Of a stretch of 64,000 nt of DNA, positions 12,606-33,421 are shown piece by piece. Source of the DNA: an uncultured Gaiellaceae bacterium. Its GTDB lineage: Bacteria > Actinomycetota > Thermoleophilia > Gaiellales > Gaiellaceae. The position numbers were made by a program, and so were the translations under genes. The notes under the pieces were generated by a model that was not told the DNA's origin, made no database searches, and was given only the letters and a program-made list of their open reading frames with translations. The stretch covers positions 106,456 to 170,455 of the forward strand of contig CAVRRU010000009.1 of the NCBI GenBank assembly GCA_963723695.1, written 5' to 3'. Each line of letters starts with the position of its first letter. Within the stretch, counting starts at the first letter, position 1.

Positions 12606-12615
12606 CCGCGCTCCG

Positions 12616-14650: not shown

Positions 14651-14663
14651 CGCTCACCTTCTC

Positions 14664-17049: not shown

Positions 17050-17052
17050 GAC

Positions 17053-17088: not shown

Positions 17089-17105
17089 GAGCCCCTCCCC
17101 TGCCG

Positions 17106-17876: not shown

Positions 17877-17922
17877 CGTGGGTACTCCCTCCTGCGCCTC
17901 GTCGGCGCACTGTGTTGGAGGC

Positions 17923-17955
17923 AGCGTCGGTGCTGCTGCTCAAGAAACGCTCAAG
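17923..17955 (-). promoter_or_regulatory. SARP-type promoter: TTGAGCG-N4-TTGAGCA, 8 bp, -10 GACGCT
   Basis: Minus-strand reading. Heptamers at 17948-17954 and 17937-17943 (11-bp phase), hexamer at 17923-17928. Upstream of the RTX gene start at 17876. Confidence 0.55.
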
Positions 17956-19300
17956 CTGACCGTACGAAGAGCGCGCGGGCGGCCGCGTCCGCCTTCATGG
18001 GCAGCGTGCATGCAACCACGCGACCCCGACACGCACCCGACCAGCCCTTGAAGCGCCAGCCCTTGGTGGCCTTCGCGGTGAGTCGCAACGGCACGTAGGA
18101 CGGCACGAGCGTCGAGCACCGCCTGGGGCACGCGAGCGCGAGCCGAGACGCGCGTACGGTGCCGCGTCCGGCAACCGCAAGCTTCAGCCGCACGTTGATC
18201 GGCGCGAAGAGCACGGACACGTTCGTTGCACGGGACAGGCTCACCGAGCATTCGAACACTGCTCCGCAGCCCGCTCCCCACGAGATGAGCTTCGCGTCCG
18301 GCGCGGGTTCTCCGGTGAGCTTGACGCTGGTGTTCGCGTTCCACGCGGTGGTGCAGCTTTCGGTGCACCGCAGGCCCGGGAGGTCGGCGGTGACCGTTCC
18401 CCGCCCGGTGAGCGCGAGTTGCAGTGGCACCTGCCGATCGAGCTGCACGAGCCATGGCGAGTCCCGCACGTCGAGTTGCGAGCCCGCGTGGGCGTAGTAG
18501 TCGTCGCGAGCGGAGTCGAGGCTCAGGCCGCTGATGGGCGTCTCGTCCCCGAACGGATACATCATGTCGTAGGAGTCGTCGCACACGTGGCCGTCGTGCG
18601 GTAGCGGGCAGTCGTGGGGTGCGCCGACTGGCACGGCGCCGAGCGTGTGCAGTAACTCATGAGTCGAGGTCGTGGTCGGTGGAACGCCGGCGCACGCGCG
18701 GACGTACACGATCGCGTATCCGTATCCGTCCTCGTGGCTGCCGCCTTGCCCGCAGATGTCCGGGTGGCTCGGTCCGTCGTAGTACACGACGTACTTCGTA
18801 TGACGGGACGAGAAGCCGAGCGCGACGAGCGCTTCTGCGATCCGCACGAAGCGCGTGTCGTCATCGGCGAGCTCGGCTCCGCTCTGTGAGAGTCGAATCT
18901 GCGTGAGGTCCAGCTGGGGACCACAGGAGAGCTGCGTGAGGTCGTTCCGCGGTGTCCGAGTCCCATCCTGCGACCGCCACCACGCGTCGATCGACTCCGC
19001 GTCGGTCTGCATCGCGCTCGCGTACGTTACGAAGCTGTCTGCACCGTCGAACGGTGTCACGTAGATCCAGTGAGCGGCGTAGCCGGCAATGGCATTCGGC
19101 GTCACGTCGACCTGCGACGGCGTGCCGCACCATGCAACGGACGTCCTCGAGCGTGCGGGCTCGGACGCGCCGGCGATCCCCGGGGCTCGTGTCGCGCGCG
19201 TAAGGGAGTGGACGCTCCACCCGCGGTCGGGCAGTTGCTCGCCTCCAGCGCTTGCGACGGCGACCGCGATCACCGCTACGACAAAGCTTCTCCTGACCAT
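17951..19300 (-). CDS. secreted HExxH zinc metalloprotease-like protein with two Cys-rich C-terminal repeat domains
   Basis: Signal peptide MVRRSFVVAVIAVAVASA. THELLHTLGAV (HExxH). Two C-terminal repeats of the pattern G.GTV...C...C....GW.G.C.G...C resemble divergent InlB B-repeat domains. Confidence 0.6.
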   Translation of the reverse strand: MVRRSFVVAVIAVAVASAGGEQLPDRGWSVHSLTRATRAPGIAGASEPARSRTSVAWCGTPSQVDVTPNAIAGYAAHWIYVTPFDGADSFVTYASAMQTDAESIDAWWRSQDGTRTPRNDLTQLSCGPQLDLTQIRLSQSGAELADDDTRFVRIAEALVALGFSSRHTKYVVYYDGPSHPDICGQGGSHEDGYGYAIVYVRACAGVPPTTTSTHELLHTLGAVPVGAPHDCPLPHDGHVCDDSYDMMYPFGDETPISGLSLDSARDDYYAHAGSQLDVRDSPWLVQLDRQVPLQLALTGRGTVTADLPGLRCTESCTTAWNANTSVKLTGEPAPDAKLISWGAGCGAVFECSVSLSRATNVSVLFAPINVRLKLAVAGRGTVRASRLALACPRRCSTLVPSYVPLRLTAKATKGWRFKGWSGACRGRVVACTLPMKADAAARALFVRSA

Positions 19301-19307
19301 GGAGGAC

Positions 19308-19340
19308 AGCGTGCTCGTCCTCCCTCAAGAATCGCTCAAG
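19308..19340 (-). promoter_or_regulatory. SARP-type promoter: TTGAGCG-N4-TTGAGGG, 8 bp, -10 CACGCT; leaderless geometry
   Basis: Heptamers at 19333-19339 and 19322-19328, hexamer at 19308-19313. The A of ATG 19300 lies 8 nt after the hexamer. Confidence 0.55.
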
Positions 19341-19722
19341 CCTCGACGAACTGGATCGCTGCTCGGCTCGAGATGATCAGGCGGCCGCCGTCGTACCAGC
19401 GTCCGGAGAAGTCATGCCAGCCCGCAGCAAGGCCGTTGGGAAACTCCGCAATGTTTGACTTCCGTACCGGCACACCGGCCTCGGTCTGCACATCGGTGAG
19501 CATCGAGATGGCCTTGCCGTCCACGTCGAGCTCGAACCGTGTGCTGGCATCGTCCAGACGCACGCCGTCGTCGGGCTCGGCCGCGAACCCGTAGCCGACC
19601 CAGAAGCTCGTCTCGGCGGCGTGCATCGTCGGCGTCGCTCCTCCGGGGAAGATCCCGATCCGTCCCTCCTTCTCCGCCATTCCGTCCGACGGCGAGACGG
19701 TGAAGACCACGAGTGCAGCCAT
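19336..19722 (-). CDS. hypothetical small protein
   Basis: 128-aa ORF. Strong RBS AAGGAGG 5 nt before ATG 19722. No recognisable domain. Confidence 0.6.
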   Translation of the reverse strand: MAALVVFTVSPSDGMAEKEGRIGIFPGGATPTMHAAETSFWVGYGFAAEPDDGVRLDDASTRFELDVDGKAISMLTDVQTEAGVPVRKSNIAEFPNGLAAGWHDFSGRWYDGGRLIISSRAAIQFVEA

Positions 19723-19754
19723 GACGACCTCCTTGGTGGGTTACCCATCGCCGC

Positions 19755-19787
19755 AGCGTGCCCGCGATAGCTCAAGCTCGGCTCAAA
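19755..19787 (-). promoter_or_regulatory. SARP-type promoter: TTGAGCC-N4-TTGAGCT, 8 bp, -10 CACGCT
   Basis: Heptamers at 19780-19786 and 19769-19775, hexamer at 19755-19760. Upstream of the gene starting at 19722, in the divergent intergenic region shared with the SARP-cyclase gene. Confidence 0.5.
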
Positions 19788-19854
19788 GCGGGGATGGAAA
19801 TTCGGCGTGCCCCGTGAGAAAGTGCGAACCGCACAAGCACCGAGGGGAAGTCGG

Positions 19855-22800
19855 ATGGACGGAGCGAGTCGGGCAGGCACCCAAGCGCTCGACGTACGCC
19901 TTCTCGGCCCAATCGAGGTCGAGCGAGGCGGCGTTCCTGCGGCGCTCGGAGGCCAGAAGCCGCGTGCGCTCCTGACTGTTCTCGCACTCGAGCCGGGTCG
20001 CGTCGTGTCGGTCGACCGGCTCGTCGAGTCGCTTTGGCCGGGCGAGCCGCCGGAGACGGCCTCGCATGCCGTCCAGGTCTACGTCTCCCAGCTGCGCAAG
20101 GCGCTCGGCCCGAAAACGCTCGTCACGCAAGCGCCGGGCTACGTCCTCGAGCTCCAGGCCGACGGCGTCGACGTCCATCGCTTCTTGCGCCTTGCCCAGG
20201 AAGGAAGCGCGGCCCTCGAGTCGGGCGAGGCGGCAGCGGCCGAAGTCGCGCTCCGCGAAGCGCTGGCCTTGTGGCGCGGGCCTGCACTCGCGGACTTCCT
20301 CTACGAGCCGTTCGCCCAGACGCACATCGCTCGTCTCGAGGAGCTACGCACAGTCGTCGTCGAGGAGCGGATCGAGGCAGACCTGGCCCTCGGGCGTCAC
20401 GCCGAGCTCGTCGCCGAGCTCGAGGCGCTCGTTCAGGCGGAGCGGCTTCGCGAGCGTCCGCGAGCGCAGCTCATGCTTGCGCTTTACCGGTCCGGCCGGC
20501 AGGCCGATGCGCTCGCCGCGTATCGCGATGCGCGCGAGACGCTCGTCGACGAGCTCGGCATCGAGCCGGGCCACGAGCTCAGGGGGCTCGAGGCCGCGAT
20601 CCTGCGGCAGGACGAGTCGCTGCTGCTCGAGGAGGTCCCGCTCGCGAAGTCGGCGATGCAGTTCCGACGGCTCGTCACGATTCTCTTCGTTGACGTCGTC
20701 GAGTCGATGTCGATTGCGGAGGCGCTCGACGCCGAGGCCCTCAGTCTCGTCCTGCGCCGGTACTTCGAGACCGTCTCTGCGGCGATTACGCGACACGGAG
20801 GAGCGATCGAGAAGTACGCCGGAGACTCCGTCATGGCGGCCTTCGGTATTCCGGTTTCGCACGAGGACGACGCGCTCCGCGCCGCCCGCAGTGCGCTCGA
20901 CATCCGGGCCGGGGTTGCCGCACTGAACGAACAACTCATGCGCGAGTACGGGATGGGACTCGATGTTCGGATCGGGTTCGAGGCGGGGGAGGTCGTCGCC
21001 ACGCCCACAGAAGCGCGGCAGCGGCTCGTCGCCGGCGAGGCGGTCGGGATCGCCTCACGGCTCGAGCAGGCGGCGGGCTCCCACGAGATCCTCGTCGGCG
21101 AGCTCGCCGGTCGACTGATCGACCACGCAGCGGTGCTCGACCCCCTCGGCGAGCTCGACATCAAAGGGAGGCGCCAGCCCGTCCGTGCGTACCGGCTGCT
21201 GGAGCTCACGCCTGTTGCGCCCGCATTCGAAGCGCGGAACGAGGCGCCGCTCGTCGGTCGCAAGCGAGAGCTTGCGGCCCTGCGTAAGGCGCTCAAGCGT
21301 GCGACCGACGCGGGCAGCGTTCATGTCGCCCTGGTCACGGGGCCGCCCGGCGTCGGAAAGTCGCGCCTCGCTGCCGAGCTCACCCGCCGCGCGAAGGGCG
21401 TGACGACACTCTGGGGCCGGTGTCTCTCGTACGGCGAAGGCATCACCTACTGGCCCCTTCGCGAGGTCGTTGCCCAGGCGCCCGAAAGCGGTGCGCGCGA
21501 CGCATTCATCGCTGCGCTGGATGCCGGGACGCCTCCGCCTGCGCCAGAGATCGCGCTCCTGTTCCGGCAGTTCTGCAGCGCTCTTGCGCACGAGAAGCCG
21601 CTCGTTCTCGCCCTCGACGACGTCCACTGGGCCGAGCCCACGCTGCTCGAGTTGGTCGAGCAGCTCGCCGCTAAGGGCACCGGGCCGGCGCTCGTCGTAT
21701 GCGTCGCCCGCGAAGAGCTCCTCGACGAGCGGACGGGGTTCCTCGACGGGCAGAGCAACGTCGCCCGGATCGGTCTCGACGCGCTCTCCGGCGAGGAAGC
21801 GGATGCGCTCATCGACGGCCTTGGTGGCACAGTCCTCGAGTCCGATCAACGCGCGCGGGTCGCGTCGGCGGCGGAGGGTAATCCCTTCTTCCTCGAACAG
21901 CTGCTCGCCCTCGCGCTCGAAGGTGGGCTCGGCACGGGGACGATCCCCGAGACCGTGCAGGCGCTCCTAGCAGCCCGCCTCGACCGGCTCGGCCCCGGCG
22001 AGCGCGCGGTGCTCGAGCGAGGGGCCGTGATCGGGAAGGAGTTCAGGCTCGACGACGTCGTCGCCCTCCTCGAGCCTGACGCTGCGCCGACGACCGAGGT
22101 GCACATGAACGCGCTCGCCGCTCGGGGCTTCCTCCGGCCGGCTGCGCCGGGAGAGTTCCGTTTTCGGCATGTCCTCGTCCAGCAAGCCGTGTATCGCGCC
22201 GCCCCTAAGCGATTGCGCGCTGAGCTGCACGAGCGCTACGCGGATCGACTTGATACCGAATCGCCGGATCTCCCCGATCTCGACGAGTTCGTCGGCTACC
22301 ACCTCGAGGGAGCGTACTTCCTCCGGACTGAGCTATCCGGGTCAGATCGACGCACCCAGCGGCTGGCTGAGGATGGGGGAAAACGGCTGCGATCGGCGGG
22401 AATGCGGGCACTTCGCCGCGGTGACATGCCCGCGGCGAGTGCCGTGCTCAGGCGGTCATCACAGCTTCTTCCCGCTGACGACGCGGCACGGCGCGAGGTC
22501 GTGTGCGATCTCGCGCTCTCGTACTACGCGCAGCACGAGACGGAACGTGCGATCGCTCTGCTCGAGAGCTTGCTCGAGGAACCTGTCTCACCAGCGACTG
22601 CGAACACGCGAGCCCGCGCACGTACCGAGCTCGAGTTCATTCGTCTTCGCAATGAAGTCGGTCGGACGGCTGACGCCCTGCTCGAAGCGATCGAAAGCGG
22701 CATTCCCATCTTCGAGCGTCTCCGCGACGATCGAGCGCTTGGTAGAGCGTTGCTGCTGTCCGGTTGGGTCCATGGCGGCCGCCGAGGAAGAAATGCCGCT

Positions 22801-23616
22801 TGGACAGCCGATGCAGAAAGAGCACTGGAGCACTACGAATCGGCCGGCTGGCCGCTCTCGCTTTGTTTGGGCCAGATCGCGATCTCGCTCTACTGGGGCC
22901 CTACACCCGTCGCGGACGCCATGACGCGCATCGAGACCCTTCGCGATCGGGTAGAAACCGATCTTCAGGGCACCGCGAACCTGGACACGTTCCTGGGCGG
23001 GCTCGTTGCCCAGCTCGGCGACTTCGAGCGGGCCCGCGAGGTGGTCGGCGGAGCGCGATCAGTTTTCGAGAGTCTCGGACTGCGAGCGCAGGCCCTCACA
23101 TACCCGGTCACCGTTCTCGGAGAGATCGAGCTCCTCGCCGGCAACGCGGCAAGTGCAGAGGCAGTCCTTCATGAACTCTGCGCGGACCTCGAGAGGTACG
23201 GAGAGTTCAGTCACCTTGCTAGTAGGGCGAGCGATCTCGCCGAGACTCTGTTCTTGCTCGACCGCATCGACGAAGCGGAGAAGTGGACCGGCGTCGCTCG
23301 AAGGTACGCGGCGCACGACGATGTCCAGGCGCAGATGATGTGGCGTCCCGTACAGGCGAGGATCGAGCTGCGCAAAGGCGCCGTCGATCTTGCCGATCGA
23401 CTCGCGCGAGAGGGTCTGTCCGTAGCCAATACGACCGACGATCTCAACCGGCGTGCCAAGGCATATGCCGCGCTCGGAACGGTTCTCCGTGCAACTGGGC
23501 GACAGGGGGCAGCCGAGAGCGCCTATCGGCAGGCGATCCATCTCTACGAGCAGAAGGGGAACGTGGCCGGCGTTGAGCAGCTCCGCATGCTCGACGCGAA
23601 GCTCGCTCGGGTCTGA
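19855..23616 (+). CDS. large multidomain regulator: SARP (wHTH+BTAD) - class III adenylate/guanylate cyclase - P-loop ATPase - TPR
   Basis: VRLLGPIEV and ALWRGPALADF (SARP/BTAD). VTILFVDVVESMS...EKYAGDSVMAAFG (cyclase, about 20670-21200). VALVTGPPGVGKSRL (about 21340). Long helical/TPR tail. ATG 19855 preferred over GTG 19807. Confidence 0.8.
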   Translation: MDGASRAGTQALDVRLLGPIEVERGGVPAALGGQKPRALLTVLALEPGRVVSVDRLVESLWPGEPPETASHAVQVYVSQLRKALGPKTLVTQAPGYVLELQADGVDVHRFLRLAQEGSAALESGEAAAAEVALREALALWRGPALADFLYEPFAQTHIARLEELRTVVVEERIEADLALGRHAELVAELEALVQAERLRERPRAQLMLALYRSGRQADALAAYRDARETLVDELGIEPGHELRGLEAAILRQDESLLLEEVPLAKSAMQFRRLVTILFVDVVESMSIAEALDAEALSLVLRRYFETVSAAITRHGGAIEKYAGDSVMAAFGIPVSHEDDALRAARSALDIRAGVAALNEQLMREYGMGLDVRIGFEAGEVVATPTEARQRLVAGEAVGIASRLEQAAGSHEILVGELAGRLIDHAAVLDPLGELDIKGRRQPVRAYRLLELTPVAPAFEARNEAPLVGRKRELAALRKALKRATDAGSVHVALVTGPPGVGKSRLAAELTRRAKGVTTLWGRCLSYGEGITYWPLREVVAQAPESGARDAFIAALDAGTPPPAPEIALLFRQFCSALAHEKPLVLALDDVHWAEPTLLELVEQLAAKGTGPALVVCVAREELLDERTGFLDGQSNVARIGLDALSGEEADALIDGLGGTVLESDQRARVASAAEGNPFFLEQLLALALEGGLGTGTIPETVQALLAARLDRLGPGERAVLERGAVIGKEFRLDDVVALLEPDAAPTTEVHMNALAARGFLRPAAPGEFRFRHVLVQQAVYRAAPKRLRAELHERYADRLDTESPDLPDLDEFVGYHLEGAYFLRTELSGSDRRTQRLAEDGGKRLRSAGMRALRRGDMPAASAVLRRSSQLLPADDAARREVVCDLALSYYAQHETERAIALLESLLEEPVSPATANTRARARTELEFIRLRNEVGRTADALLEAIESGIPIFERLRDDRALGRALLLSGWVHGGRRGRNAAWTADAERALEHYESAGWPLSLCLGQIAISLYWGPTPVADAMTRIETLRDRVETDLQGTANLDTFLGGLVAQLGDFERAREVVGGARSVFESLGLRAQALTYPVTVLGEIELLAGNAASAEAVLHELCADLERYGEFSHLASRASDLAETLFLLDRIDEAEKWTGVARRYAAHDDVQAQMMWRPVQARIELRKGAVDLADRLAREGLSVANTTDDLNRRAKAYAALGTVLRATGRQGAAESAYRQAIHLYEQKGNVAGVEQLRMLDAKLARV

Positions 23617-23671
23617 CGAACGAGCAAGGCCCGCCTCGCGACGAGCCTTGCGCATCGAGATAGGGCCGTAT

Positions 23672-23785
23672 CTAGCCGACTCCAGGGCTGCCGCCGTCCG
23701 CATATGCGACGAGCGGTGCCGCGAGCGCGAGCAGACCGACTGCGAGCACGACGAGCGTGCGGTGCAGTGAGGTGACCTGGCGCAT
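23672..23785 (-). CDS. unlisted 37-aa hydrophobic peptide (MRQVTSLHRTLVVLAVGLLALAAPLVAYADGGSPGVG)
   Basis: Below the ORF-track cutoff. GGGAGGGA RBS 4 nt before ATG 23785. Signal-peptide/TM-like core. TAG at 23672-23674. Confidence 0.45.
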   Translation of the reverse strand: MRQVTSLHRTLVVLAVGLLALAAPLVAYADGGSPGVG

Positions 23786-23955
23786 CGTTCCCTCCCTTCC
23801 GAGGTGATCGAGTTCCTCCGATCACGCTCGGGGAGGGCGCTAATCGCATAGCCACAATTCGCTAACCAGCTGCAAACAGCAATTGGTCGAGACAGACGGA
23901 AAAGGTGCGCGCGCCAATACGCTCGACAATTCACGTGCGATTTCGGTGCCGTGGT

Positions 23956-24108
23956 CTACGCGGCTGCCGCTGCAGGAGCATCGCGCGGAACGAGCTCGCG
24001 ACGCCACTTCGGCGGGCACTCCTCTGCCCGGAAGGCCTCGACGACGGCGAGGTATCGCTCGACCTCCTGGATCAGTCGCATTGGGTCGATGTTGGCTAGA
24101 CGTTCCAT
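23956..24108 (-). CDS. unlisted 50-aa ORF (MERLANIDPMRLIQEVERYLAVVEAFRAEECPPKWRRELVPRDAPAAAAA)
   Basis: Below the ORF-track cutoff. Good GC3. ATG 24108 lies 7 nt after the -10-like hexamer of a SARP-type promoter (leaderless geometry, same as the 19300 gene). Confidence 0.4.
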   Translation of the reverse strand: MERLANIDPMRLIQEVERYLAVVEAFRAEECPPKWRRELVPRDAPAAAAA

Positions 24109-24114
24109 GGCGTC

Positions 24115-24147
24115 ATGGTCGTCCGTGTTTCTCAAGATCCGCTCAAG
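24115..24147 (-). promoter_or_regulatory. SARP-type promoter: TTGAGCG-N4-TTGAGAA, 8 bp, -10 GACCAT
   Basis: Heptamers at 24140-24146 and 24129-24135, hexamer at 24115-24120. Sits between the deacetylase stop (24155) and the 50-aa ORF. Confidence 0.5.
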
Positions 24148-24154
24148 TCAGCAG

Positions 24155-24913
24155 CTAGCTATCGAGCTTGTCCGCAAGGCCGTCGACGCCATCACTTCCG
24201 CCAACGCGAACGCGGCGCAGCTCGTACGGCTCGTCCGGCCTCGCGAGTCCCTCCACAGTCGTCGTCGCGCCGAGATAGCCGGCGCGGCGGACTGCGCGGA
24301 TTACGCTCGAGTCGTACCTGCCAGCCGGATAGCAGATGAAGTCGACAGGCACTCCGAAGCGGGACCGGAGTATCGCTCTCGAGCGCGTCACTTCGCGCCT
24401 GAGTGTGGGTTCATCGAGGCTTGTGAGATCCGGGTGAGTGAGCGTGTGCGACGCGAGCTCCCAGCCTGCTGCAATGAGCATCCGCACTCTGTATTGGCTC
24501 AGCCCGCCCGAAACGCGAAGATTCTTGACCGTCAGGTTGAGGACTCCCGGCCACGATCTCTTCTGCATGTGGGGCAGCGCTGCCTCGGCGACGCTGCGGT
24601 ATCCGTCGTCGAACGAGATGACGATGGGCTTCGCAGGCAACGCGCTGCCCCGGTGCCAGTGATTCCAGAGGTCGCGTTGCGTCACTGCCGTGTATCCGTG
24701 GCGCGCAAGCCATTTCATCTGACCTGCGAAGTCGGGCTCACTGACATAGAGGTCCGGGTACGGAGCGCCCGCCGGCGCATCGGCGATTACGTGGTACATG
24801 AGGATCGGGACCGGGGTGGCGGAGTGGGACGCGTTGGTTGCGGACTGGCCGCATGCGGCGAAGACGAGGGCGGCGACGAGCGCCGCGGCTGAGGTGATGC
24901 GTGAGGTAGTCAT
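24155..24913 (-). CDS. secreted polysaccharide deacetylase (NodB homology domain)
   Basis: Lipoprotein-like signal MTTSRITSAAALVAALVFAACG. ISFDDGYRS, ASHTLTHPDL, ICYPAGRY motifs. ATG 24913 preferred over TTG 24940. Confidence 0.8.
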   Translation of the reverse strand: MTTSRITSAAALVAALVFAACGQSATNASHSATPVPILMYHVIADAPAGAPYPDLYVSEPDFAGQMKWLARHGYTAVTQRDLWNHWHRGSALPAKPIVISFDDGYRSVAEAALPHMQKRSWPGVLNLTVKNLRVSGGLSQYRVRMLIAAGWELASHTLTHPDLTSLDEPTLRREVTRSRAILRSRFGVPVDFICYPAGRYDSSVIRAVRRAGYLGATTTVEGLARPDEPYELRRVRVGGSDGVDGLADKLDS

Positions 24914-24978
24914 GGCCCGCACGGTCGGAGGGGCCTCCAACCGGCCGGCAACGGGCTGCCAACGTCTCGCTAACTGCC
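24885..24978 (-). repeat. copy A of a 94-nt duplicated leader plus signal-peptide start (about 87% identical to 25908-26001)
   Basis: Ungapped alignment by eye. Includes the conserved hairpin CGGTTGGAG-NCCC-CTCCGACCG (24922-24943, minus-strand sense) and GTTAGCGAG (24968-24976). Confidence 0.8.
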
Positions 24979-24979
24979 A

Positions 24980-25936: not shown

Positions 25937-26001
25937 GACCGGCACGGTCGGAGGGGTCTCCAACCGGCCGGCCACCGCCTGACAACGGCTCGCTAACCGC
26001 G
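25908..26001 (-). repeat. copy B of the duplicated leader plus signal-peptide start
   Basis: See copy A. Hairpin at 25945-25966, GTTAGCGAG at 25991-25999. Confidence 0.8.
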
Positions 26002-26002
26002 T

Positions 26003-26035
26003 CTTGAGCGGGTCTTGAGCGCATTCGAGTGATCT
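26003..26035 (+). promoter_or_regulatory. three tandem heptamers (TTGAGCG, TTGAGCG, TCGAGTG; 11-bp phase) plus -10-like TGATCT upstream of the SARP-SIR2 gene
   Basis: Heptamers at 26004-26010, 26015-26021 and 26025-26031. TGATCT at 26030-26035 lies 8 bp after the second heptamer and 9 nt before ATG 26045 (leaderless geometry). Confidence 0.55.
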
Positions 26036-26044
26036 GTGTCCCGG

Positions 26045-27697
26045 ATGCTGGACACAGCACAGCCGGACGATCTAAGGTCGCCCGTGACGCTCGACTTCCG
26101 GATACTCGGCCCTCTCGAGGTCTCCGACGAGACCGGGCCCGTCGCGCTGGGCGGTCCCAAGCAGCGCGCGCTGCTCGCGATTCTCGTGCTCGATGTCGGC
26201 CGGGTCGTCCCGACCGATCGGCTGATCGACCAGCTGTGGGGTCGAGAGGCGCCCAAGACGGCCAACGCATCGCTCCAGAATTCGGTGGGCCGTCTGCGCC
26301 GAGCCCTGGGCACCGAGGTTCTCAAGACTCGATCGCCCGGTTACGTGTTGAACGCCGACCCGGCCCAGATCGACGCACGGCGCTTCGAGCGGGCGCTGGG
26401 GGATGCGAGGCGGTCGCCCGCCGAAGAGCGCCGTGCGCGCTTGCAGGCAGCGCTCGCGCTCTGGCGTGGCCCGGCGCTCGCGGAGTTCGCCTTCGACGAC
26501 TTCGCCCAGCCGGAGATCCGCAGGCTCGAGGAGCTACGGCTCGTTGCTCATGGGGAGCGGATCGACGCGGACCTCGAGCTTGGGCGGCATGGCGACGTCA
26601 TCGGCGAGCTCGAGGCGCTCGTCAGCGAGCATCCGCTGCGGGAGACCTTCCGGACGCAGTTGATGCTGGCGTTCTACCGGGCGGGCCGGCAAGCGGAAGC
26701 CCTCGATGTCTACCAGGACGCGCGCTCACGTTTCATCGACGAGCTCGGAATCGAGCCCGGACCGGAGCTCAAGCGGCTCCAGTCGGAGATCCTTCGCCAC
26801 GAGGCCGGCCTGGCCGTGTCCGATCAGCCGGCCCCAACGGACGAGGAGGGCGAGATCATCCGGGCCCTTCTCGCGGGCCGGGTGGTCCCCGTGATCGGTC
26901 TCGACGGTGCCGGCGACCTCGCCGAACATCTCGCCAAGGCGTTCTCGGTTCCCGACGACCGACCCGTCGACCTCGCGCGCGTTTCCCAGTACGTGGCGAC
27001 GATGCAGGGATCGGGGCCACTGTACGACGAGCTCCATACGCGGTTCGAGGCGGCTGTCGAGCCGAGCCCGCTTCATCGCTTCCTTGCGCGTTTGCCGGCA
27101 CTGCTACGCGAACGAGGTGCTCCTCACCAGCTCATCGTCACCACCAACTACGACCTCGCGCTCGAGCGCGCCTTCGAGGAGACCGGTGAAGAGCTCGACA
27201 TCGTCTCCTACGTCGCGACGGGGCCGCATCGCGGCCGCTTCTGGCATCGGCCACCCGGGGAGCCGCCTCGACCAATCGACGTTCCCAACACGTATGCGAC
27301 GGAGCTCAGCCTCGATCGTCGTACGATCCTCCTGAAGCTGCACGGTGCGGTCGACCCGCTCCCCGAGCGCGAGTGGGAGAGCTTCGTGATCACTGAGGAC
27401 GACTACATCGACTATCTCGGTCGCGCAGAGCTGACTGCGGTCGTCCCCGTGGCTCTCGCCGCCAGGCTCCGGCGCAGCCACTTCCTCTTCCTCGGCTACG
27501 AGATGGCCGACTGGAACCTTCGCCTCATCCTCAACAGGATCTGGGGCGAGCGGCCCGTCGCGTACCGCTCATGGGCCGTTCAGCATTCTCCGAGCCCGCT
27601 CGCGCAGGCGTTCTGGCGACGGTTCGACGTCGCCGCATTGGACGTCGATCCGCGCTCGTACGTCGAGCTCCTCGAGCGACGGCTCGAGGCAGCATGA
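26045..27697 (+). CDS. SARP-family wHTH+BTAD DNA-binding module fused to a SIR2_2-type (sirtuin-like) domain
   Basis: FRILGPLEV, ALWRGPALAEF, AFYRAGRQAEAL (SARP/BTAD), then VVPVIGLDGAG, TTNYD (27140-27154), KLHG (27335-27346), FLFLGYEMADWN (SIR2_2-like). Alternative starts GTG 26036 and GTG 26084. Confidence 0.75.
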   Translation: MLDTAQPDDLRSPVTLDFRILGPLEVSDETGPVALGGPKQRALLAILVLDVGRVVPTDRLIDQLWGREAPKTANASLQNSVGRLRRALGTEVLKTRSPGYVLNADPAQIDARRFERALGDARRSPAEERRARLQAALALWRGPALAEFAFDDFAQPEIRRLEELRLVAHGERIDADLELGRHGDVIGELEALVSEHPLRETFRTQLMLAFYRAGRQAEALDVYQDARSRFIDELGIEPGPELKRLQSEILRHEAGLAVSDQPAPTDEEGEIIRALLAGRVVPVIGLDGAGDLAEHLAKAFSVPDDRPVDLARVSQYVATMQGSGPLYDELHTRFEAAVEPSPLHRFLARLPALLRERGAPHQLIVTTNYDLALERAFEETGEELDIVSYVATGPHRGRFWHRPPGEPPRPIDVPNTYATELSLDRRTILLKLHGAVDPLPEREWESFVITEDDYIDYLGRAELTAVVPVALAARLRRSHFLFLGYEMADWNLRLILNRIWGERPVAYRSWAVQHSPSPLAQAFWRRFDVAALDVDPRSYVELLERRLEAA

Positions 27698-30600
27698 GCG
27701 CGAAGCCCGAGTCGCCGTACAAGGGCCTGAATCCGTTCGACGACTCGGAGGTCGACGCGCTTCTCTTCTTCGGGCGGGAGCGAGAGACGGCGATCGTCGT
27801 AGCGAACCTGATCGCCGCTCGGCTGACGGTGCTTTACGGCCCGAGCGGTGTCGGGAAGTCCTCACTTCTGAGCGCGGCCGTGGCCCGTTCGCTGCGCGCG
27901 CTCGCCGAGGGACCGCTCGTCGTCGTGTTCTCGAGCTGGAGCGACGATCCGAACCCCGCTCTCGCCGAGGCGGTCGGGAAAGCGGCCGGGCTCACGACTG
28001 ACGGCTCCGCGGTCGGGGCGCTCGAGCTGGCGCAGTCCGAGCGCGACGTGTACCTCATCCTCGACCAGGCCGAGGAGTACTTCCTGTACCACGCCGACGA
28101 CGGTGGCCCCGGGTCGTTCGCGGAGGCGCTACCGGCCATCCTCGCCGCCCCGACCCGCGTGAACGTGCTGGTCTCCCTGCGCGAGGATTCGCTTGCGAAG
28201 CTCGACCGCTTCACGGGCCGGATTCCGGGGTTGTTTGCGAACACACTTCGACTCGATCGGCTCGATCGCGGCGCCGCGCGCAAGGCTGTGCTCCGACCGG
28301 CCGAGCGCTATGCGGAGCTGACCGGCGAATCGGTGATCATCGAGCCGGCGCTCGTCGAGCGTGTCCTCGACGAGGTCGGTGCGGGGCGGATCGAGCCTGC
28401 CCTCGGGGGCCTCGGCACAGTCGAAGCACTCGACGCGGGCGGACGGATCGAAGCGCCCTACCTCCAGCTCGTCATGCAGCGCCTGTGGGACGAGGAGCGC
28501 GCATCCGGCTCGACGGAGCTCAGAGCTGAGACCTTCGAGCGACTGGGCGGCGCGCAACACATCGTGGAGGAGCACCTCGAGGGTGCGATGGCCGAGCTCA
28601 CCATCGCGCAGAGCGACCTAGCCGCGCGGATCTTCAACCACCTCGTCACGCCGTCGGGGACGAAGATCGCCCACGAAGTCGCCGACCTCGCCGATTTCGG
28701 CCGTGTCAGTGAGCCCGAGCTTACCCCGGTTCTGACGACGCTCACGGACCGGCGCATCCTGCGGTCGATCGACGAGGGTCGCGGTGTCCGGTACGAGATC
28801 TTCCACGACGTCCTCGGAGAGCCGGTGCTCGCGTGGCGAACCCGACACCGCACGGAGCGGGAGATCGAGCGACAGGTCGAGGAGCAGGCGAGACGCCGAA
28901 CGCGCATGCAGCGCCTCATCGGACTCGCGCTCGGGCTACTCGCCCTCCTGCTCGCCGTCGCCGCGTTCGGCGTCCTGCAGCAGCGCAACGCCGACGAGCA
29001 GTCGCGTGACGCGCAGGCGCGCACGCTTGATGCGTCGGCTATCGCCCTCCTGCCCGAGGATCCCGAGTTGAGCGTTCTCCTGGCGCGCGAGTCGGCGCGG
29101 ATGGCTCCTGGACCGACTGCGGAGGACGCACTCCTCCAGTCGCTCCTCACGTCGCACCTGCGAGACGTCCGATCGACGGCCGGCGCCATCACGTCGATGG
29201 ACTCCACTGGGGGAGGGAGCAAGCTCGTCGCTTACGCCAGTGACGACGGCGTCGCGCGGGTCGTCGACCTGCGCACCGGTACTCGACGCTTCACGACGAA
29301 GGTCGGCACGGGCGGGCGAGTCTCATTCTCTCCGAGTGGCTCGACGGTTCTCGTCTCCGGCGGCGCAGGCCCGCCGCGAGTGCTCGACGTCGCGAAGGGC
29401 CGGGCCGTGTGCAGGCTGGGCGACCGGGCGAGCGCGCCGTCGGCGGACGCGGTTTTGCTCGCGAACCGTGCGGTTGCGGTCCGCAACGGGGTCGCATACG
29501 TCTGGAATACGCGCACGTGCCGGCTCGTCCACACCCTCGGGCGGGTGGGTAGGACCGCGGTACGCGTCGTCGCGAGCCCGGATGGCATGCGTGTCGCGTT
29601 CCTGTCTGGGCGTGAAGCGCGAGTCGCGGACCCCGTACGCGGACGGCTTCTCTTCCGCCTGAGGCACCCGGGCGACATCACGAGCGTCGCGTTCAGCACG
29701 GACGGCAATCGCATCGTGACGGGCGGGCGTGATCGGCTCGCACGCATTTGGAACGGTCGCACCGGAAGGCTGGTTCACGAGCTGAGTGGGCACTCGGGTC
29801 AGGTGCTGGACGTCGCGATCGGGCCTCCGGGAACCGAGGTCGCGACTGCCAGCACAGACGGCACGGCACGCGTCTGGGACGTGTCGACCGGCCTCCTGCT
29901 CGCGCCCCTCTTCGGGCACACGAACTTCGTTCGCTCCGTCGACTTCAGCGCCGACGGCCAGACGGTCGTCACAGGGAGCGACGACGGGACCGGGCGAACA
30001 TGGGCTCTCAACGGGCGCCGGCTCGCCACGCTCGCACGTCACTCCGGCGCGGTGGTGGACGCACTTCTGACTTCGGACGGATTCGACGTCGTCACGGCCG
30101 GAGAGGACGGCACGGTACGGCTGTGGGACGCTGCCACGCGACCGGACCTGGTGCGCTCGCGCCGCGCCCAACCGCCCCCCGCTCCCCAGACGACGGCAGA
30201 GAGCTCCACCGGCGACGCGAAGGCGACGATCGACGACCACGTCGTCCGTCTCGAGCGCGATGGCGAGGCAATCGACCTCGAGGGTCATCGCCTGGCCGTT
30301 ACGAGCGTCGCCTTCTCGCCGGACGGCACGCGCCTGCTCACGGCGGCTCGAGATCACGAGGTGCGGCTCTGGGATGTGGCGACCGGCGGATCGCTGCGCG
30401 TACTCCGTGGTCACTTCGGCACGGTGAACGACGCGCGTTTCAGCCCTGACGGTCGTTGGATCGTCACCGCCGGCCCGAGATCGGTCGGCCTGTGGCGCGC
30501 ATCCGATGGTCGCCTGATCCGCCTGCTCGCGGGGCCGGAAGGCCCGTTTCTCGCCGCCGGGTTCGAAGCCGACTCACGCACGATCGTCGCGCGATCGGCC

Positions 30601-30732
30601 GGCGACGTGATCAGCGCGTACGACTGCCGGATCTGCGCCGGCATTCCGGAGCTGCTCGCACTCGCAGACGAACGCCTGCGCGCGAGCGAGAGGGAGCTAA
30701 CGGCCGAGGAGCGCGCGCTCTACTTCGGCTGA
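27694..30732 (+). CDS. novel-STAND (NACHT-like) P-loop NTPase - single TM helix - WD40 beta-propeller protein
   Basis: The ATG overlaps the upstream TGA (ATGA 27694-27697). SPYKGLNPFDDSEVDALLFFGRERE, GPSGVGKSS, VYLILDQAEE. Hydrophobic LIGLALGLLALLLAVAAFGVL (about 28915-28980). Many WD40 blades (GHSGQVLDVA, GHTNFVRSVDFSADG, GHRLAVTSVAFSPDG, VRLWD). Confidence 0.8.
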   Translation: MSAKPESPYKGLNPFDDSEVDALLFFGRERETAIVVANLIAARLTVLYGPSGVGKSSLLSAAVARSLRALAEGPLVVVFSSWSDDPNPALAEAVGKAAGLTTDGSAVGALELAQSERDVYLILDQAEEYFLYHADDGGPGSFAEALPAILAAPTRVNVLVSLREDSLAKLDRFTGRIPGLFANTLRLDRLDRGAARKAVLRPAERYAELTGESVIIEPALVERVLDEVGAGRIEPALGGLGTVEALDAGGRIEAPYLQLVMQRLWDEERASGSTELRAETFERLGGAQHIVEEHLEGAMAELTIAQSDLAARIFNHLVTPSGTKIAHEVADLADFGRVSEPELTPVLTTLTDRRILRSIDEGRGVRYEIFHDVLGEPVLAWRTRHRTEREIERQVEEQARRRTRMQRLIGLALGLLALLLAVAAFGVLQQRNADEQSRDAQARTLDASAIALLPEDPELSVLLARESARMAPGPTAEDALLQSLLTSHLRDVRSTAGAITSMDSTGGGSKLVAYASDDGVARVVDLRTGTRRFTTKVGTGGRVSFSPSGSTVLVSGGAGPPRVLDVAKGRAVCRLGDRASAPSADAVLLANRAVAVRNGVAYVWNTRTCRLVHTLGRVGRTAVRVVASPDGMRVAFLSGREARVADPVRGRLLFRLRHPGDITSVAFSTDGNRIVTGGRDRLARIWNGRTGRLVHELSGHSGQVLDVAIGPPGTEVATASTDGTARVWDVSTGLLLAPLFGHTNFVRSVDFSADGQTVVTGSDDGTGRTWALNGRRLATLARHSGAVVDALLTSDGFDVVTAGEDGTVRLWDAATRPDLVRSRRAQPPPAPQTTAESSTGDAKATIDDHVVRLERDGEAIDLEGHRLAVTSVAFSPDGTRLLTAARDHEVRLWDVATGGSLRVLRGHFGTVNDARFSPDGRWIVTAGPRSVGLWRASDGRLIRLLAGPEGPFLAAGFEADSRTIVARSAGDVISAYDCRICAGIPELLALADERLRASERELTAEERALYFG

Positions 30733-30745
30733 CCGATTCTCGGTC
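30731..30745. terminator. small hairpin between convergent STAND-WD40 and 30758 genes
   Basis: GACCGA TTC TCGGTC overlapping the TGA of the STAND gene. Short stem, weak. Confidence 0.3.
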
Positions 30746-30757
30746 CGACCATGCTCG

Positions 30758-31513
30758 CTAACAGCGGCCGGGAGGCAGGAAGCCTGCGGCGCACAGCTCC
30801 GGACGCGGCGCGCTGACGGCGAACGCGCTGCGGAGATCATCGGTGAACCAGACGTGGAGCATCTCGCTTGCCCCCTGCCGGAGTCGCGCGCCCGGCGGGC
30901 ACCCGCCGCCGGCGAGAGGCTTCAGACCACGCTTCTTGCCTTGCTTGCAGACGACGTGCGAGTGCCAGCGCAGGATCGGCCCAGCCGGCGTCGGCCCGAG
31001 CTCGCCGTCTCGCGTGCTCCACATGGCGCCGACGAGGACGAGCGGTCGTCCCGGTGCGTTCGCGTATATGAGCGCCTTCGGCCGCGTGAAGTCGAAGATG
31101 GACCGACCGCGCGGCTCCTGGCGCCGCTCGGCGTGGAAGAAGAAGACGCTTCGGTCTCCGCGCTTGCGAGGACGCGAACGTGTGTCGTAGCCCGCGCGAG
31201 CCGCGGCGCGCAGGTCATCCCACCTCCCACGCTTCGCGGCAGCGACGAGTCGGGTTAGTACGAGCGTCGCTCGCGCGCGCTGGCGCGGCGTGGCAATGGC
31301 CACGACCGGATACTGCGGGAGGTGGTTGATGAGGCCGCGACGAGCGGTGGGCGGGAGCTCTTCGCTGCCTTGTGGGAGCGTGCAGACGAGGAGTGGAGGC
31401 ACAGCTGTACGTGCCTCACCTACGATCGCACCTAGCGCGATCGCGACCGCGGCACCGACGACTGCCCCGATCGCACGTGTACTCACTTGATAACCATCGG
31501 CACATCGGCGCAA
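30758..31513 (-). CDS. hypothetical membrane-anchored/secreted protein
   Basis: 251-aa ORF with an N-terminal hydrophobic segment AIGAVVGAAVAIALGAIVG. 12-nt gap after the upstream gene, so likely an operon. No recognised domain. Confidence 0.55.
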   Translation of the reverse strand: MRRCADGYQVSTRAIGAVVGAAVAIALGAIVGEARTAVPPLLVCTLPQGSEELPPTARRGLINHLPQYPVVAIATPRQRARATLVLTRLVAAAKRGRWDDLRAAARAGYDTRSRPRKRGDRSVFFFHAERRQEPRGRSIFDFTRPKALIYANAPGRPLVLVGAMWSTRDGELGPTPAGPILRWHSHVVCKQGKKRGLKPLAGGGCPPGARLRQGASEMLHVWFTDDLRSAFAVSAPRPELCAAGFLPPGRC

Positions 31514-31525
31514 GACTCGCTCCGT

Positions 31526-33364
31526 TCAGCCTCTGACGAGGAGTAACGCATGCGCGCTTGCGCTCGGGCTGGCCGCTCGCGTGCCGACGAAGAAAGCGCG
31601 GACACGCCAACGTCCCACCGCAGGCGGCGACCACGACACGGTTGCGAGGCCACCGCTTCCGACGCGCGCGACGAGGATCCGCGAGAACTGCCAGCCTTCG
31701 ATCGGATCGAAGTGATCGATGCGGAATCGCACGTGTCCTCCTACGGCGGCGTCAGGCGTCACGCCAGACGAGAGTTGGACGTCGCGACTGTATTCCGCCG
31801 TCGCGGTTGGCACTCCTTCGACGAGTGCGATCGTCGTCGAGATCTCGCGAATCAGCAGCGAGACTCGGTACTCACCTGCGTTCTGGCCGCGCGCGCGAAT
31901 TGCGACGAAATACTGACCCTCCTCGAGTTTCGCGCGAAGCTCGGGCCTCCGTGCCGCCCCGCAGACGCACTTGACGTAGTTGCCCTCGCTCGACAGCAAG
32001 AAAAGTTCGAAGGTCGCCTTCCGAGGAGTCCGGAGTCGTGCCGTCACCTCGGTCCGGTGGGTCACATCGAAGCGATAGAGATCGAGCACGTCGATTGAGC
32101 GCGCTGACAAGGAACCTCGGCGTGTCTGACCGTTGCGGATGAGAAGACCGGGAGCCAAGTCGTCGCGCCCGGCTCGAGCGACCTGCAGCCGATAGCGCTG
32201 TGCTCCGCCCCGGTGCCCCTCCGACCTGACGAGCAGGCTGTAGCGTCCGCCCTCGTCGGGGCCCGGCGTGAAGACGAGGTACCCGCCGCAGGGACGTCGA
32301 TCCACAACGCGGCGATCGTCGAACGAGGAGGTCCCGGGCCTGAACAGGGACAGCGGGAGACAGCGGCCGCGATCCGGCGCGAGGTTCAATCGGTATGTCC
32401 GTCCGGCTGTCAGTGCGACCGACCATGCAGCTTCCGGCCGGCTCAGCGGGTCCACGCTCGACCTCGCCCCGCCGGTGGGAAGGCGCGCTCCGGGCGCCTT
32501 CGCGAGCGGAGGTGCGAAGAGCTCGAGCCGAAATGTGCTCGACGCCGAGTCTGACCGCTCGCCGACGACGATGAGGTGCTGGCGTCCCCGCTCCGCCTGG
32601 AAGGCCACTCCGCCGATTCCGTTCTCGTCCGTCGGCACGCAGCCGAGCGGCTTGTACTGCGAGCGCACACGCCGGAAGACTGCCACGACTGCATCGAGCC
32701 TTCCGCGAGCACGAATCCGGACGGCGATCCGTCCACGCAGGCGCGTCGTGAGGCTGTACCACACCGTCGAGCCTGACGCCCCGCAGCCGAGCTCGGGGTC
32801 CGAGTAGTCGGAGGTTGCACCGATCGTCGTCCCATCGATCGACGACGGGGGAGTGTGGAGCATGGCCGCGTTTCGGCGCGCGTCGTTCGTAGGCGTGACA
32901 TAGACCTCGGTGCGTCCCACGCCGGCAGCATGCGTTTCGCTTCCGGAGTACGACGCGGTGATCGTGTGTGTCCCGTTGCCGATCGCTTCGGGCTGGTACG
33001 CCATCGAGCAAGTCGCAGCCGCCGCGGCGCTGGCCGCAAGTGTGCAGCTTTCGGGGTCGAACGACCCGGGCCCGGTGCTTGCCAAGCCCACCGTTCCGGC
33101 CGGAGCGGCCTTCTTGCCGGAGCCGGTATCGGCGACCTTCGCGGTGCAGAGAGCCGATGCTCCTGGCGTCAGCGTCTCTTGGTTGCACGTCACGGTCGTC
33201 CTGGTCGATCTGAGCGCGGTGATGCCGTCTGCCGACACGGGCGCCGAGGCAGCCGGGGTGGGGCCGACAACGCCGACGACCGCGACCGTCGTTGGAACGA
33301 GCACGGCGATCCTGAGTACCGACCTACCACGATCCGCGAACGAGCTGAGCGAGATGCGCTTCAC
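31526..33364 (-). CDS. large secreted protein with Ig-like and PPC-like beta-domains (hypothetical)
   Basis: 612-aa ORF. AAGGAGG RBS 5 nt before GTG 33364. Signal/anchor, then Cys-containing beta-rich repeats. No catalytic motif recognised. Confidence 0.6.
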   Translation of the reverse strand: MKRISLSSFADRGRSVLRIAVLVPTTVAVVGVVGPTPAASAPVSADGITALRSTRTTVTCNQETLTPGASALCTAKVADTGSGKKAAPAGTVGLASTGPGSFDPESCTLAASAAAAATCSMAYQPEAIGNGTHTITASYSGSETHAAGVGRTEVYVTPTNDARRNAAMLHTPPSSIDGTTIGATSDYSDPELGCGASGSTVWYSLTTRLRGRIAVRIRARGRLDAVVAVFRRVRSQYKPLGCVPTDENGIGGVAFQAERGRQHLIVVGERSDSASSTFRLELFAPPLAKAPGARLPTGGARSSVDPLSRPEAAWSVALTAGRTYRLNLAPDRGRCLPLSLFRPGTSSFDDRRVVDRRPCGGYLVFTPGPDEGGRYSLLVRSEGHRGGAQRYRLQVARAGRDDLAPGLLIRNGQTRRGSLSARSIDVLDLYRFDVTHRTEVTARLRTPRKATFELFLLSSEGNYVKCVCGAARRPELRAKLEEGQYFVAIRARGQNAGEYRVSLLIREISTTIALVEGVPTATAEYSRDVQLSSGVTPDAAVGGHVRFRIDHFDPIEGWQFSRILVARVGSGGLATVSWSPPAVGRWRVRAFFVGTRAASPSASAHALLLVRG

Positions 33365-33386
33365 GCGAGCCTCCTTGTCGCAGCGG

Positions 33387-33419
33387 ATCTTCCGCGCCGA
33401 TCCTCAAGGAATGCTCAAG
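33387..33419 (-). promoter_or_regulatory. SARP-type promoter: TTGAGCA-N4-TTGAGGA, 8 bp, -10 GAAGAT
   Basis: Heptamers at 33412-33418 and 33401-33407, hexamer at 33387-33392. It lies in the 57-nt divergent gap between the 33364 gene and uvrB. Confidence 0.5.
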
Positions 33420-33421
33420 AC

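Follow-up and report, generated by a model that had tools for sequence, protein, structure and literature searches.

Candidate SARP-type promoters of two operator classes in the coaE-uvrB island of Gaiellaceae

The coaE-uvrB island and its phased heptamers

We analysed a 64-kb stretch of DNA from an uncultured Gaiellaceae bacterium (the window, to which all plain coordinates refer), in which a block of genes lies between coaE (14056-15051) and uvrB (from about 33422), a conserved housekeeping neighbour pair. Six genes of this island are each preceded by two TTGAGCG-like heptamers in 11-nucleotide (nt) phase and, 8 nt further on, by a candidate -10 hexamer. These sites, which we call class A, are very probably promoters activated by Streptomyces antibiotic regulatory proteins (SARPs), judging from their architecture, their conservation and the genes around them. 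The window has a G+C content of 65-72%, and its genes were called from G+C at codon position 3, Pfam matches and inspection of start sites.

The left part of the island holds three minus-strand genes, arranged head to tail, tightly packed and with one operator each. They encode an RTX-repeat protein with a signal peptide (17106-17876, from Pfam and the gene call, with ATG 17876 behind a Shine-Dalgarno (SD) sequence), a 449-residue secreted HExxH protein (17951-19300; motif THELLHTLG, signal peptide, InlB B-repeat) and a 128-residue, beta-rich, lineage-restricted protein (19336-19722). Next comes a plus-strand gene for a large PimR-like SARP (19807-23616; start GTG 19807 or ATG 19855) with SARP, class III cyclase, AAA_16 and TPR regions. 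Four minus-strand genes follow, for a 37-residue pre-peptide (MRQVTSLHRTLVVLAVGLLALAAPLVAYA followed by DGGSPGVG, also written MRQVTSLHRTLVVLAVGLLALAAPLVAYADGGSPGVG; 23672-23785), a 50-residue protein predicted to be leaderless (MERLANIDPMRLIQEVERYLAVVEAFRAEECPPKW...; 23956-24108), which is the most conserved class A target, a polysaccharide deacetylase lipoprotein (24155-24913) and an M23-like peptidase with a signal peptide (24980-25936, the start corrected to 25936). A second SARP gene (26045-27697, plus strand) combines Trans_reg_C and BTAD with SIR2_2 and is referred to here as SARP-SIR2; it is followed by a gene for an nSTAND1 NTPase with a WD40 propeller (27694-30732, plus strand). The island closes, on the minus strand, with genes for a 251-residue protein (30758-31513) and a 612-residue secreted Ig-like protein with a Big_3_5 domain (31526-33364; GTG 33364 with an SD in front). 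A sequence-only reading of this DNA had named two SARP-domain proteins in the block, and Trans_reg_C plus BTAD are indeed present in both; the genes it had placed downstream of the six sites (RTX, HExxH with signal peptide, 128-residue, 50-residue, SARP-SIR2 and the 612-residue Ig-like protein) were likewise confirmed.

Searches of Pfam and NCBIfam returned no match for the 50-, 128-, 251- and 37-residue products. The AlphaFold model of the 128-residue protein is beta-rich and of low confidence (predicted local distance difference test score 63), and Foldseek with this low-confidence model gave generic beta-sandwich matches, none with E < 0.001. No biosynthetic gene cluster was found at the locus, and no tRNA gene or Rfam family in the window.

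The exact pattern TTGAG-N6-TTGAG occurs six times in the 64 kb (0.01 expected), at 17939-17954(-), 19324-19339(-), 19771-19786(-), 24131-24146(-), 26004-26019(+) and 33403-33418(-), and none of 100 dinucleotide-preserving shuffles reached six. These are the sites that the sequence-only reading had listed, although its outer coordinates lay one base too far upstream (for example 17955 for 17954), and the comparison with shuffled sequence that it had asked for thus came out in its favour within the window. Permitting one mismatch added just three matches in the window, none of them convincing. Since TTGAG by itself is not enriched there (58 observed, 63 expected), the signal resides in the phased pair, and repeat spacings of 10 or 12 nt showed no enrichment of the motif. 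As had been claimed, all six sites fall within one 16-kb block, with none in the other 48 kb, and each stands just upstream of a gene start and is oriented toward the gene that follows.

Three of the sites serve the packed genes on the left. The promoter of the RTX gene (17923-17954, minus strand) reads TTGAGCG-tttc-TTGAGCA, 8 nt, GACGCT, ahead of ATG 17876; that of the HExxH gene (19308-19339, minus strand) reads TTGAGCG-attc-TTGAGGG, 8 nt, CACGCT, with ATG 19300 lying 7 nt past the hexamer, so that its mRNA is predicted to be leaderless; and that of the 128-residue protein (19755-19786, minus strand), divergent from the PimR-like gene, reads TTGAGCC-gagc-TTGAGCT, 8 nt, CACGCT. The 50-residue protein has TTGAGCG-gatc-TTGAGAA, 8 nt, GACCAT, 6 nt and then ATG 24108 (24115-24146, minus strand). 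The SARP-SIR2/nSTAND-WD40 operon has TTGAGCG-ggtc-TTGAGCG, 8 nt and an atypical hexamer, TGATCT, ahead of ATG 26045 (26004-26035, plus strand), and the Ig-like protein has TTGAGCA-ttcc-TTGAGGA, 8 nt, GAAGAT (33387-33418, minus strand), ahead of GTG 33364 with its SD and abutting the uvrB start. As a representative 22-bp class A box we use TCTTGAGCGnnTCTTGAGCGnn. The gene calls agree with the claim that all six sites are intergenic, with the caveats that the TGA stops of the HExxH gene (17953-17951) and the 128-residue gene (19338-19336) lie inside the distal heptamers of the first and second sites, respectively, and that the sixth site ends 3 nt from the probable uvrB start. The claim that nAnnnT follows the second heptamer after 8 nt at all six sites held for five; at the fifth, in front of SARP-SIR2, the second position of TGATCT is G instead of A.

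The two heptamers stand 20 and 9 nt from the hexamer, spacers that rule them out as ordinary -35 elements, and a simple scan of 16500-34000 found no sigma-70-type promoter. It might be supposed that the pairs have no function and are products of chance, remnants of a duplicated segment or the end of a mobile element. When the six regions are aligned, the motif accounts for all the invariant columns and the flanks are unrelated, and in a repeat search of the window no longer repeat family covers the six sites; they are therefore not copies of one duplicated segment, and a mobile element is ruled out on the same grounds. The shuffles, together with the fixed orientation and distance to gene starts, speak against a non-functional origin as well, to which we attach next to no probability.

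Several observations concern the surroundings of these sites. The probable start of uvrB is GTG 33422, and a possible -10 for it, AATGCT (33410-33415, plus strand), falls in the inter-heptamer spacer of the sixth site, where a bound SARP might interfere with uvrB transcription. Between the third site and the PimR-like gene the plus strand carries GGGGATGGAAATTC (19788-19805), conserved in orthologues (for example in L003, L022 and L061 of the set described below), which may be part of the PimR-like gene's own promoter or an operator. An additional RTX gene (43959-44471) has no class A site. Elsewhere in the window lie genes for two further large STAND-type regulators, one of AAA_16-TPR-LuxR (LAL) build (45033-47798, plus strand) and the other a second cyclase-AAA_16-TPR protein with no recognisable DNA-binding domain (47714-51619, minus strand). 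At 10294-14049 (plus strand) a single stop-free frame spans the C-terminal region of a DNA polymerase A (polA) together with four S1 domains (rpsA), possibly a real fusion, a high-G+C frame artefact or an assembly error.

Conservation of class A sites, the -10 hexamer and start codons

For comparison we assembled 80 loci with orthologues of SARP-SIR2 (55-95% identity) and 10-kb flanks, 1.37 Mb in total, labelled L001 and so on. The named organisms among them are all Gaiellaceae or Gaiella, and the others are labelled only Thermoleophilia, Actinomycetes or Actinomycetota. Exact TTGAG-N6-TTGAG pairs occur 115 times in these loci, where about 0.2 would be expected, and they are confined to 34 loci whose SARP-SIR2 shows an identity of roughly 70% or higher. 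Window and related loci together gave 121 distinct sites, on which position counts were made, with the consensus (T/C)C-TTGAGCG-nn(T/C)C-TTGAGCG.

Columns that the search pattern does not select are conserved as well. The A at offset 27, which is hexamer position 2, is present in 93 of the 121 sites and the T at offset 31 (position 6) in 115, while 83 sites have C at offset 37 and 55 have A at offset 38. Many of the sites being orthologous, they were grouped by the family of the downstream protein, and nAnnnT was found at offsets 26-31 in 28 of the 32 families, against a background of 2%. An ATG begins exactly at offset 38 in 32/121 sites (26%, background 0.6%), and it does so in all 19 orthologous promoters of the 50-residue protein. 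From the hexamer in 28/32 families and the ATG at offset 38 we conclude that the -10 hexamer of class A promoters is real. Sequence further suggests that transcription most likely starts 6-7 nt past the hexamer and that many class A mRNAs are probably leaderless.

With these counts the idea of non-functional pairs loses what ground it had: the motif is kept at orthologous promoters, down to a protein identity of about 74%, while the spacers vary, and neither the -10 signal nor the start-codon signal depends on the search pattern, so that by its conservation the element effectively refutes it. The reading as SARP-type promoters gains support from the unselected -10 in 28/32 families, from the lack of a sigma-70 promoter in the scanned island and from the two SARPs, which align with AfsR and EmbR. 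The sequence-only reading had stated that SARPs bind repeats of 11-bp periodicity at a distance of 8 bp to the -10 element. This rule is in the literature: in SARP targets the direct repeats have a spacing of 11 or 22 bp, and 8 bp separate the 3' repeat and the -10 (PMC10936776). In all that concerns sequence, the sites agree with it.

The promoter of SARP-SIR2 itself is the one consistent exception to the -10 rule. Across its 24 orthologous class A sites (L001-L073) the T at position 6 is kept in 24/24 and the A at position 2 in 1/24, the hexamers being TGATCT, TCTCAT, TGTCAT or TCTGAT, and no start codon is found at offsets 37-39 of these sites. Another sigma factor or a different mode of action may be involved here.

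The targets found across the loci are headed by the SARP-SIR2 operon (24), the leaderless 50-60-residue protein (19) and the family of the 128-residue protein (15); the remainder are variable signal-peptide proteins, including RTX, HExxH, Ig-like, propeller and others. At the predicted +1 a 'cATG' is retained even in genes whose annotated start follows about 26 nt later, preceded by an SD and in a different frame (for example 19746-19749 and its orthologues); it could be a leaderless upstream open reading frame or merely a preferred start context.

We also scanned metagenome contigs with a stricter pattern, TTGAGCGNNTCTTGAGCG, which gave mixed matches and lends support, though no genome-wide count. 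Among the matches listed, the hexamer is correctly placed in 25 of 55 high-G+C contigs as against 9 of 65 low-G+C contigs, many of those 25 contigs carry island genes, and the downstream genes are again mostly those of signal-peptide proteins. Five unrelated low-G+C contigs (L094, L112, L159, L173 and L193) have TTGAGCGATTCTTGAGCGatttcccaGAGCTTatcaagctttga... in common, which is a conserved element of another organism that matches the pattern by coincidence.

A second operator class and the two SARP proteins

The island contains a second class of phased repeats, which the sequence-only reading had passed over. Class B consists of three or four (G/A)TTAG-type heptamers in 11-nt phase, with the same 8-nt gap to the -10, and the consensus of successive heptamers is (G/A)TTAGC(G/C), GTT(A/G)GCC, GT(G/T)nnnG and GTT(A/G/T)G(A/G)G. 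On the strand opposite to SARP-SIR2, and upstream of it, an array of four heptamers is followed by 8 nt, GAC(C/G)GT and, after 6-7 nt, the M23-like gene's ATG, and this array adjoins SARP-SIR2 in nearly all 80 loci. In the window it reads GTTAGCG/GTTGTCA/GTGGCCG/GTTGGAG, 8 nt, GACCGT, 7 nt and a predicted leaderless ATG at 25936 (25944-25997, minus strand). The deacetylase gene has GTTAGCG/GTTGGCA/GTTGCCG/GTTGGAG, 8 nt, GACCGT, 7 nt and ATG 24913, again predicted to be leaderless (24921-24974, minus strand), and the 37-residue pre-peptide gene has three heptamers, GTTAGCG/GTGGCTA/ATTAGCG, 8 nt and GAGCGT at 23829-23824 (23824-23866, minus strand). A direct repeat of 123 nt with 82% identity (24855-24977 and 25878-26000) takes in, at the deacetylase gene as at the M23-like gene, the class B promoter and the initial codons (MTTSRIT); by this comparison of sequences the deacetylase promoter is a duplicate of the M23 promoter together with its first codons. 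The pre-peptide gene, which has a strong SD, is conserved nearly base for base in about 30 related loci. Its product consists of a signal peptide and about eight further residues and could be an exported signalling peptide.

When TTGAGCG and GTTAGCG are aligned by their distance to the -10, they differ at heptamer positions 1 and 3. The two classes are discrete: among phased pairs we counted 121 TTGAG/TTGAG, 75 RTTAG/RTTAG and no mixed one. The absence of mixed operators favours two DNA-binding specificities over one tolerant protein, and a single tolerant regulator for both classes is accordingly disfavoured as leading model.

For both SARPs of the window, alignments with AfsR and EmbR extend across the whole SARP domain (E 1e-42 to 1e-47). 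In the PimR-like protein Pfam identifies Trans_reg_C (51-103), BTAD (121-266), Guanylate_cyc (289-464), AAA_16 (481-625) and C-terminal TPR, and the Pfam scan found no GerE (LuxR helix-turn-helix) in it. Its recognition helix, HAVQVYVSQLRK, is near-invariant in orthologues, with just two conservative V/I substitutions, and the core and flanking positions of class A are as conserved as this helix.

The C-terminal half of SARP-SIR2 matches Pfam SIR2_2 (E 1e-21). The catalytic Asn (TTNYD) and His (HG) are kept when it is aligned to ThsA (6LHX), and this half of the protein is probably catalytic. The ThsA models of PADLOC match it weakly and in part; PADLOC returned ThsA-like and PycC-like domain hits, all partial, and no known defence system. 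The ATG of the nSTAND1-WD40 gene overlaps the SARP-SIR2 stop (ATGA, 27694-27697), so that the two genes form one operon and are probably translationally coupled. They are adjacent in all clades, with 55-95% identity, and keep the same coaE-uvrB place on the chromosome family-wide; the pair is vertically conserved, unlike a patchy, mobile defence system. The architecture of SARP-SIR2 is common to thousands of database proteins, and among those listed with a name the names are generic.

Outside the clade of the window other arrangements are seen. In a clade of 66-71% identity (L034-L042) another large SARP, 33-40% identical to the PimR-like one, lies about 5 kb upstream of SARP-SIR2; its helix is VVQNAVSR or YVQNCVSR, and pairs of GTTAGCG-N4-GTTAGCG lie about 550 nt upstream on the other strand. 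In far-clade loci (for example L050, L053 and L057) a conserved GTGTTACAAnnnnCAC-ATG stands at the SARP-SIR2 start codon, besides a distal ATTAGCG pair, which suggests a second, proximal leaderless promoter.

Assignment of regulators and comparison with known systems

From these data we infer, with fair though limited confidence, that the PimR-like SARP binds class A and SARP-SIR2 class B, in a two-tier cascade. Over all 80 loci it is hard to see how far the PimR-like gene and class A sites occur together, because the gene often lies beyond the 10-kb flank, and we restricted the test to complete coaE-uvrB intervals, of which there are 20. All three complete intervals with a PimR-like gene contain four or five class A sites; among the 17 that lack it, one locus (L033) has a single site and the other 16 have none. 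L016, L017, L023 and L024 share one SARP-SIR2 helix type, and among them L017 has neither a PimR-like gene nor class A, and the two occur together in L016 and L024. Class A genomes differ in their SARP-SIR2 helix, for example with R or Q at the position of AfsR R92; across genomes this position is R, Q, A or H, and the class A motif is unchanged alongside. In the distant clade SARP-SIR2, beside nSTAND-WD40, is the only SARP in the island, the M23 gene has a class B array, and the SARP-SIR2 promoter reads ATTAGCG-N4-ATTAGCG-N8-GAGAGT in 12 of 15 loci.

The same co-occurrence bears on a regulator encoded elsewhere. In pho boxes, bound by PhoB or PhoP, 11-bp-phased repeats also take the place of the -35, and sigma region 4 is contacted by winged-helix protomers in tandem; direct repeats of this kind are general for OmpR/PhoB-type activators. 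A response regulator of that family could bind the pairs, the SARPs nearby being a coincidence. We regard this as improbable, since the distance of 8 nt to the -10 fits the SARP rule and the AfsR structure, as does the -38/-27 register, pho boxes lie at another distance from the -10, all six sites cluster within 16 kb around two SARP genes with none in the other 48 kb, and in complete islands the sites track the PimR-like SARP, with L033 as the one exception. Pho boxes are moreover bound by a phosphorylated receiver-domain protein, and no response regulator gene is present among the window open reading frames scanned.

A further alternative is that SARP-SIR2 is itself the TTGAGCG activator and regulates its own gene positively, the PimR-like protein binding the TTAG class or something else. 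A TTGAGCG pair lies directly upstream of SARP-SIR2 in 24 genomes, and the SARP-SIR2 of the window has Arg where AfsR R92 contacts the first T of the repeat. In addition, the motif at its own promoter shifts with its recognition helix across clades, from TTGAGCG to ATTAGGA and then ATTAGCG, but this co-variation is confounded by shared descent, and in L025, L027 and L031 TTGAGCG persists, both at their own promoter and in other places, in spite of Gln at the R92 position. Nor does the alternative sit easily with the distant clade, in which SARP-SIR2 is the sole island SARP and the operators are all of the TTAG class, so that a swap of specificity would be needed, or with the class B array that adjoins SARP-SIR2 in all clades. 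On balance we consider it rather unlikely.

Some points nevertheless weigh against our assignment of class A to the PimR-like protein. The co-occurrence of its gene with class A sites could reflect the joint gain of a module whose promoters are read by SARP-SIR2. In several loci that carry class A sites (L014, L018, L023 and L075) the 10-kb flanks show no PimR-like gene; in L007, L016, L024 and L031 the gene runs into the edge of the 10-kb flank. L033, a complete island, has its one class A-like site without a PimR-like gene. By analogy with AfsR, the Arg of the window SARP-SIR2 appears to suit TTGAGCG better than the Gln of the PimR-like protein. Finally, the class A site of SARP-SIR2 lacks the -10 A in 23 of 24 genomes and may not be a simple activated promoter.

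Under the assignment of class A to the PimR-like SARP and class B to SARP-SIR2, two SARP protomers would sit side by side on the two TTGAGCG heptamers, which start at about -38 and -27, and would stand in for the missing -35 contact and recruit RNA polymerase. The weak -10, (G/C)A(C)nnT, would begin 8 nt after the second heptamer, and transcription would start 6-7 nt past the hexamer, often at the A of the start codon, to give a leaderless mRNA. The class A activator would most likely be the PimR-like SARP-cyclase-ATPase-TPR protein (19807-23616), with a regulon of variable secreted proteins, the 50- and 128-residue proteins and the SARP-SIR2/nSTAND-WD40 operon. SARP-SIR2, most likely acting on class B operators, would then activate the M23-like peptidase, the polysaccharide deacetylase and the exported 37-residue pre-peptide. 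We suppose that SARP-SIR2 reads the TTAG class everywhere and that in the lineage of the window its operon came under the PimR-like protein, which would have created the cascade.

A broader and speculative reading, to which we give little weight, is that the island is a two-tier circuit of NLR-like parts, in which a STAND sensor and NAD chemistry are linked to the activation of genes instead of cell death. The PimR/AfsR-like SARP-cyclase-STAND-TPR protein would be a sensor that turns on a secretome through TTGAGCG promoters and also a second, split module, SARP-SIR2 plus the nSTAND-WD40 NTPase. SARP-SIR2 would unite a transcription activator with a ThsA-like, apparently catalytic domain that consumes NAD, and through TTAG promoters it would drive wall remodelling by the M23 peptidase and the polysaccharide deacetylase, as well as a small exported peptide. 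If this were true, the system would be vertically inherited and family-wide.

SARPs have been described as regulators of antibiotic and secondary-metabolite clusters, in actinobacteria only and mainly in streptomycetes (PMC10972967, a review which also covers the general repeat rule that underlies the ActII-ORF4/DnrI comparison below). In our literature search no paper turned up that connects SARPs to SIR2 domains or to Gaiella. The proposed mechanism being the one already known for SARPs, the system is not new in kind. What appears new is its occurrence in a Thermoleophilia lineage, with new heptamers, leaderless starts and secretome and cell-envelope targets in place of antibiotic synthesis, and the pairing, in one island, of two discrete operator classes with two SARP paralogues, one class being linked to a SARP-SIR2 fusion. 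The afsS-type promoter geometry would then be older and more widely used than descriptions of SARPs imply, serving secreted and cell-envelope proteins in an uncultured, deep-branching soil lineage. The two paralogues appear to use operators that differ at positions 1 and 3 and offer a natural pair for the study of DNA reading by SARPs, for which about 200 aligned natural operators are provided, together with a regulon that is clear and testable, in an abundant group for which hardly any genetics exists.

The closest known counterpart is AfsR at the afsS promoter of Streptomyces coelicolor. There a 22-bp box extends from -40 to -19, with the upstream repeat TTCAGC at -38 to -33 and a weak -10, CACTGT, and two AfsR protomers lie side by side, R92 contacting T-38 and T-27 and T88 the third position; structures of SARP transcription initiation complexes are available (PDB 8HVR, 8K60 and 8JKE) (PMC10936776). 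When +1 is set at offset 38, the first T of each class A heptamer falls at -38 and -27, the same register, with TTGAGC in place of TTCAGC. In both systems two 11-bp direct repeats in a 22-bp box overlap and replace the -35, the 3' repeat is 8 bp from a suboptimal -10 (CACTGT there, CACGCT or GACGCT here), and the activator, here a candidate, belongs to the large SARPs that have an NTPase and TPR repeats. The heptamer positions at which classes A and B differ, 1 and 3, are the two that AfsR reads with side chains. The differences are also clear. The heptamer is another one, and the organisms are Gaiellaceae (Thermoleophilia) and not Streptomyces. The system described here has many candidate targets per genome, whereas AfsR has one main target, and these are secreted proteins and another SARP, with the conserved 50-residue protein as the best-kept target, instead of a small regulator with pleiotropic effects on antibiotic synthesis; in addition, the transcripts are in many cases probably leaderless.

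PimR and the SARP-LAL regulators (SanG, PolR, PteR and FilR) consist of SARP, a cyclase-like region, a P-loop ATPase and TPR, without a LuxR helix-turn-helix, and PimR, SanG and PolR have the operator heptamer CGGCAAG in common (PMC5930380). The 19807-23616 protein has the same order of parts and likewise no LuxR helix-turn-helix, and it resembles PimR also in the heptamers with 4-nt spacers and in its proposed place as the head of a two-step cascade, in which a further transcription factor is activated. The main PimR operator, however, consists of three CGGCAAG repeats and has no overlap with the -35, while here two TTGAGCG heptamers take an afsS-like position; and PimR has a single target in an antibiotic gene cluster, while here there is no biosynthetic cluster and there are at least six candidate targets. 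With TTGAGCG as its candidate operator, as against CGGCAAG, the PimR-like protein would therefore not be an orthologue of PimR with the same specificity. SARPs of the ActII-ORF4/DnrI type are small proteins in antibiotic gene clusters, often with three repeats and with TCGAGCG-like heptamers. With them class A shares heptameric repeats in 11-bp phase that overlap the -35, and TTGAGCG is one base away from TCGAGCG.

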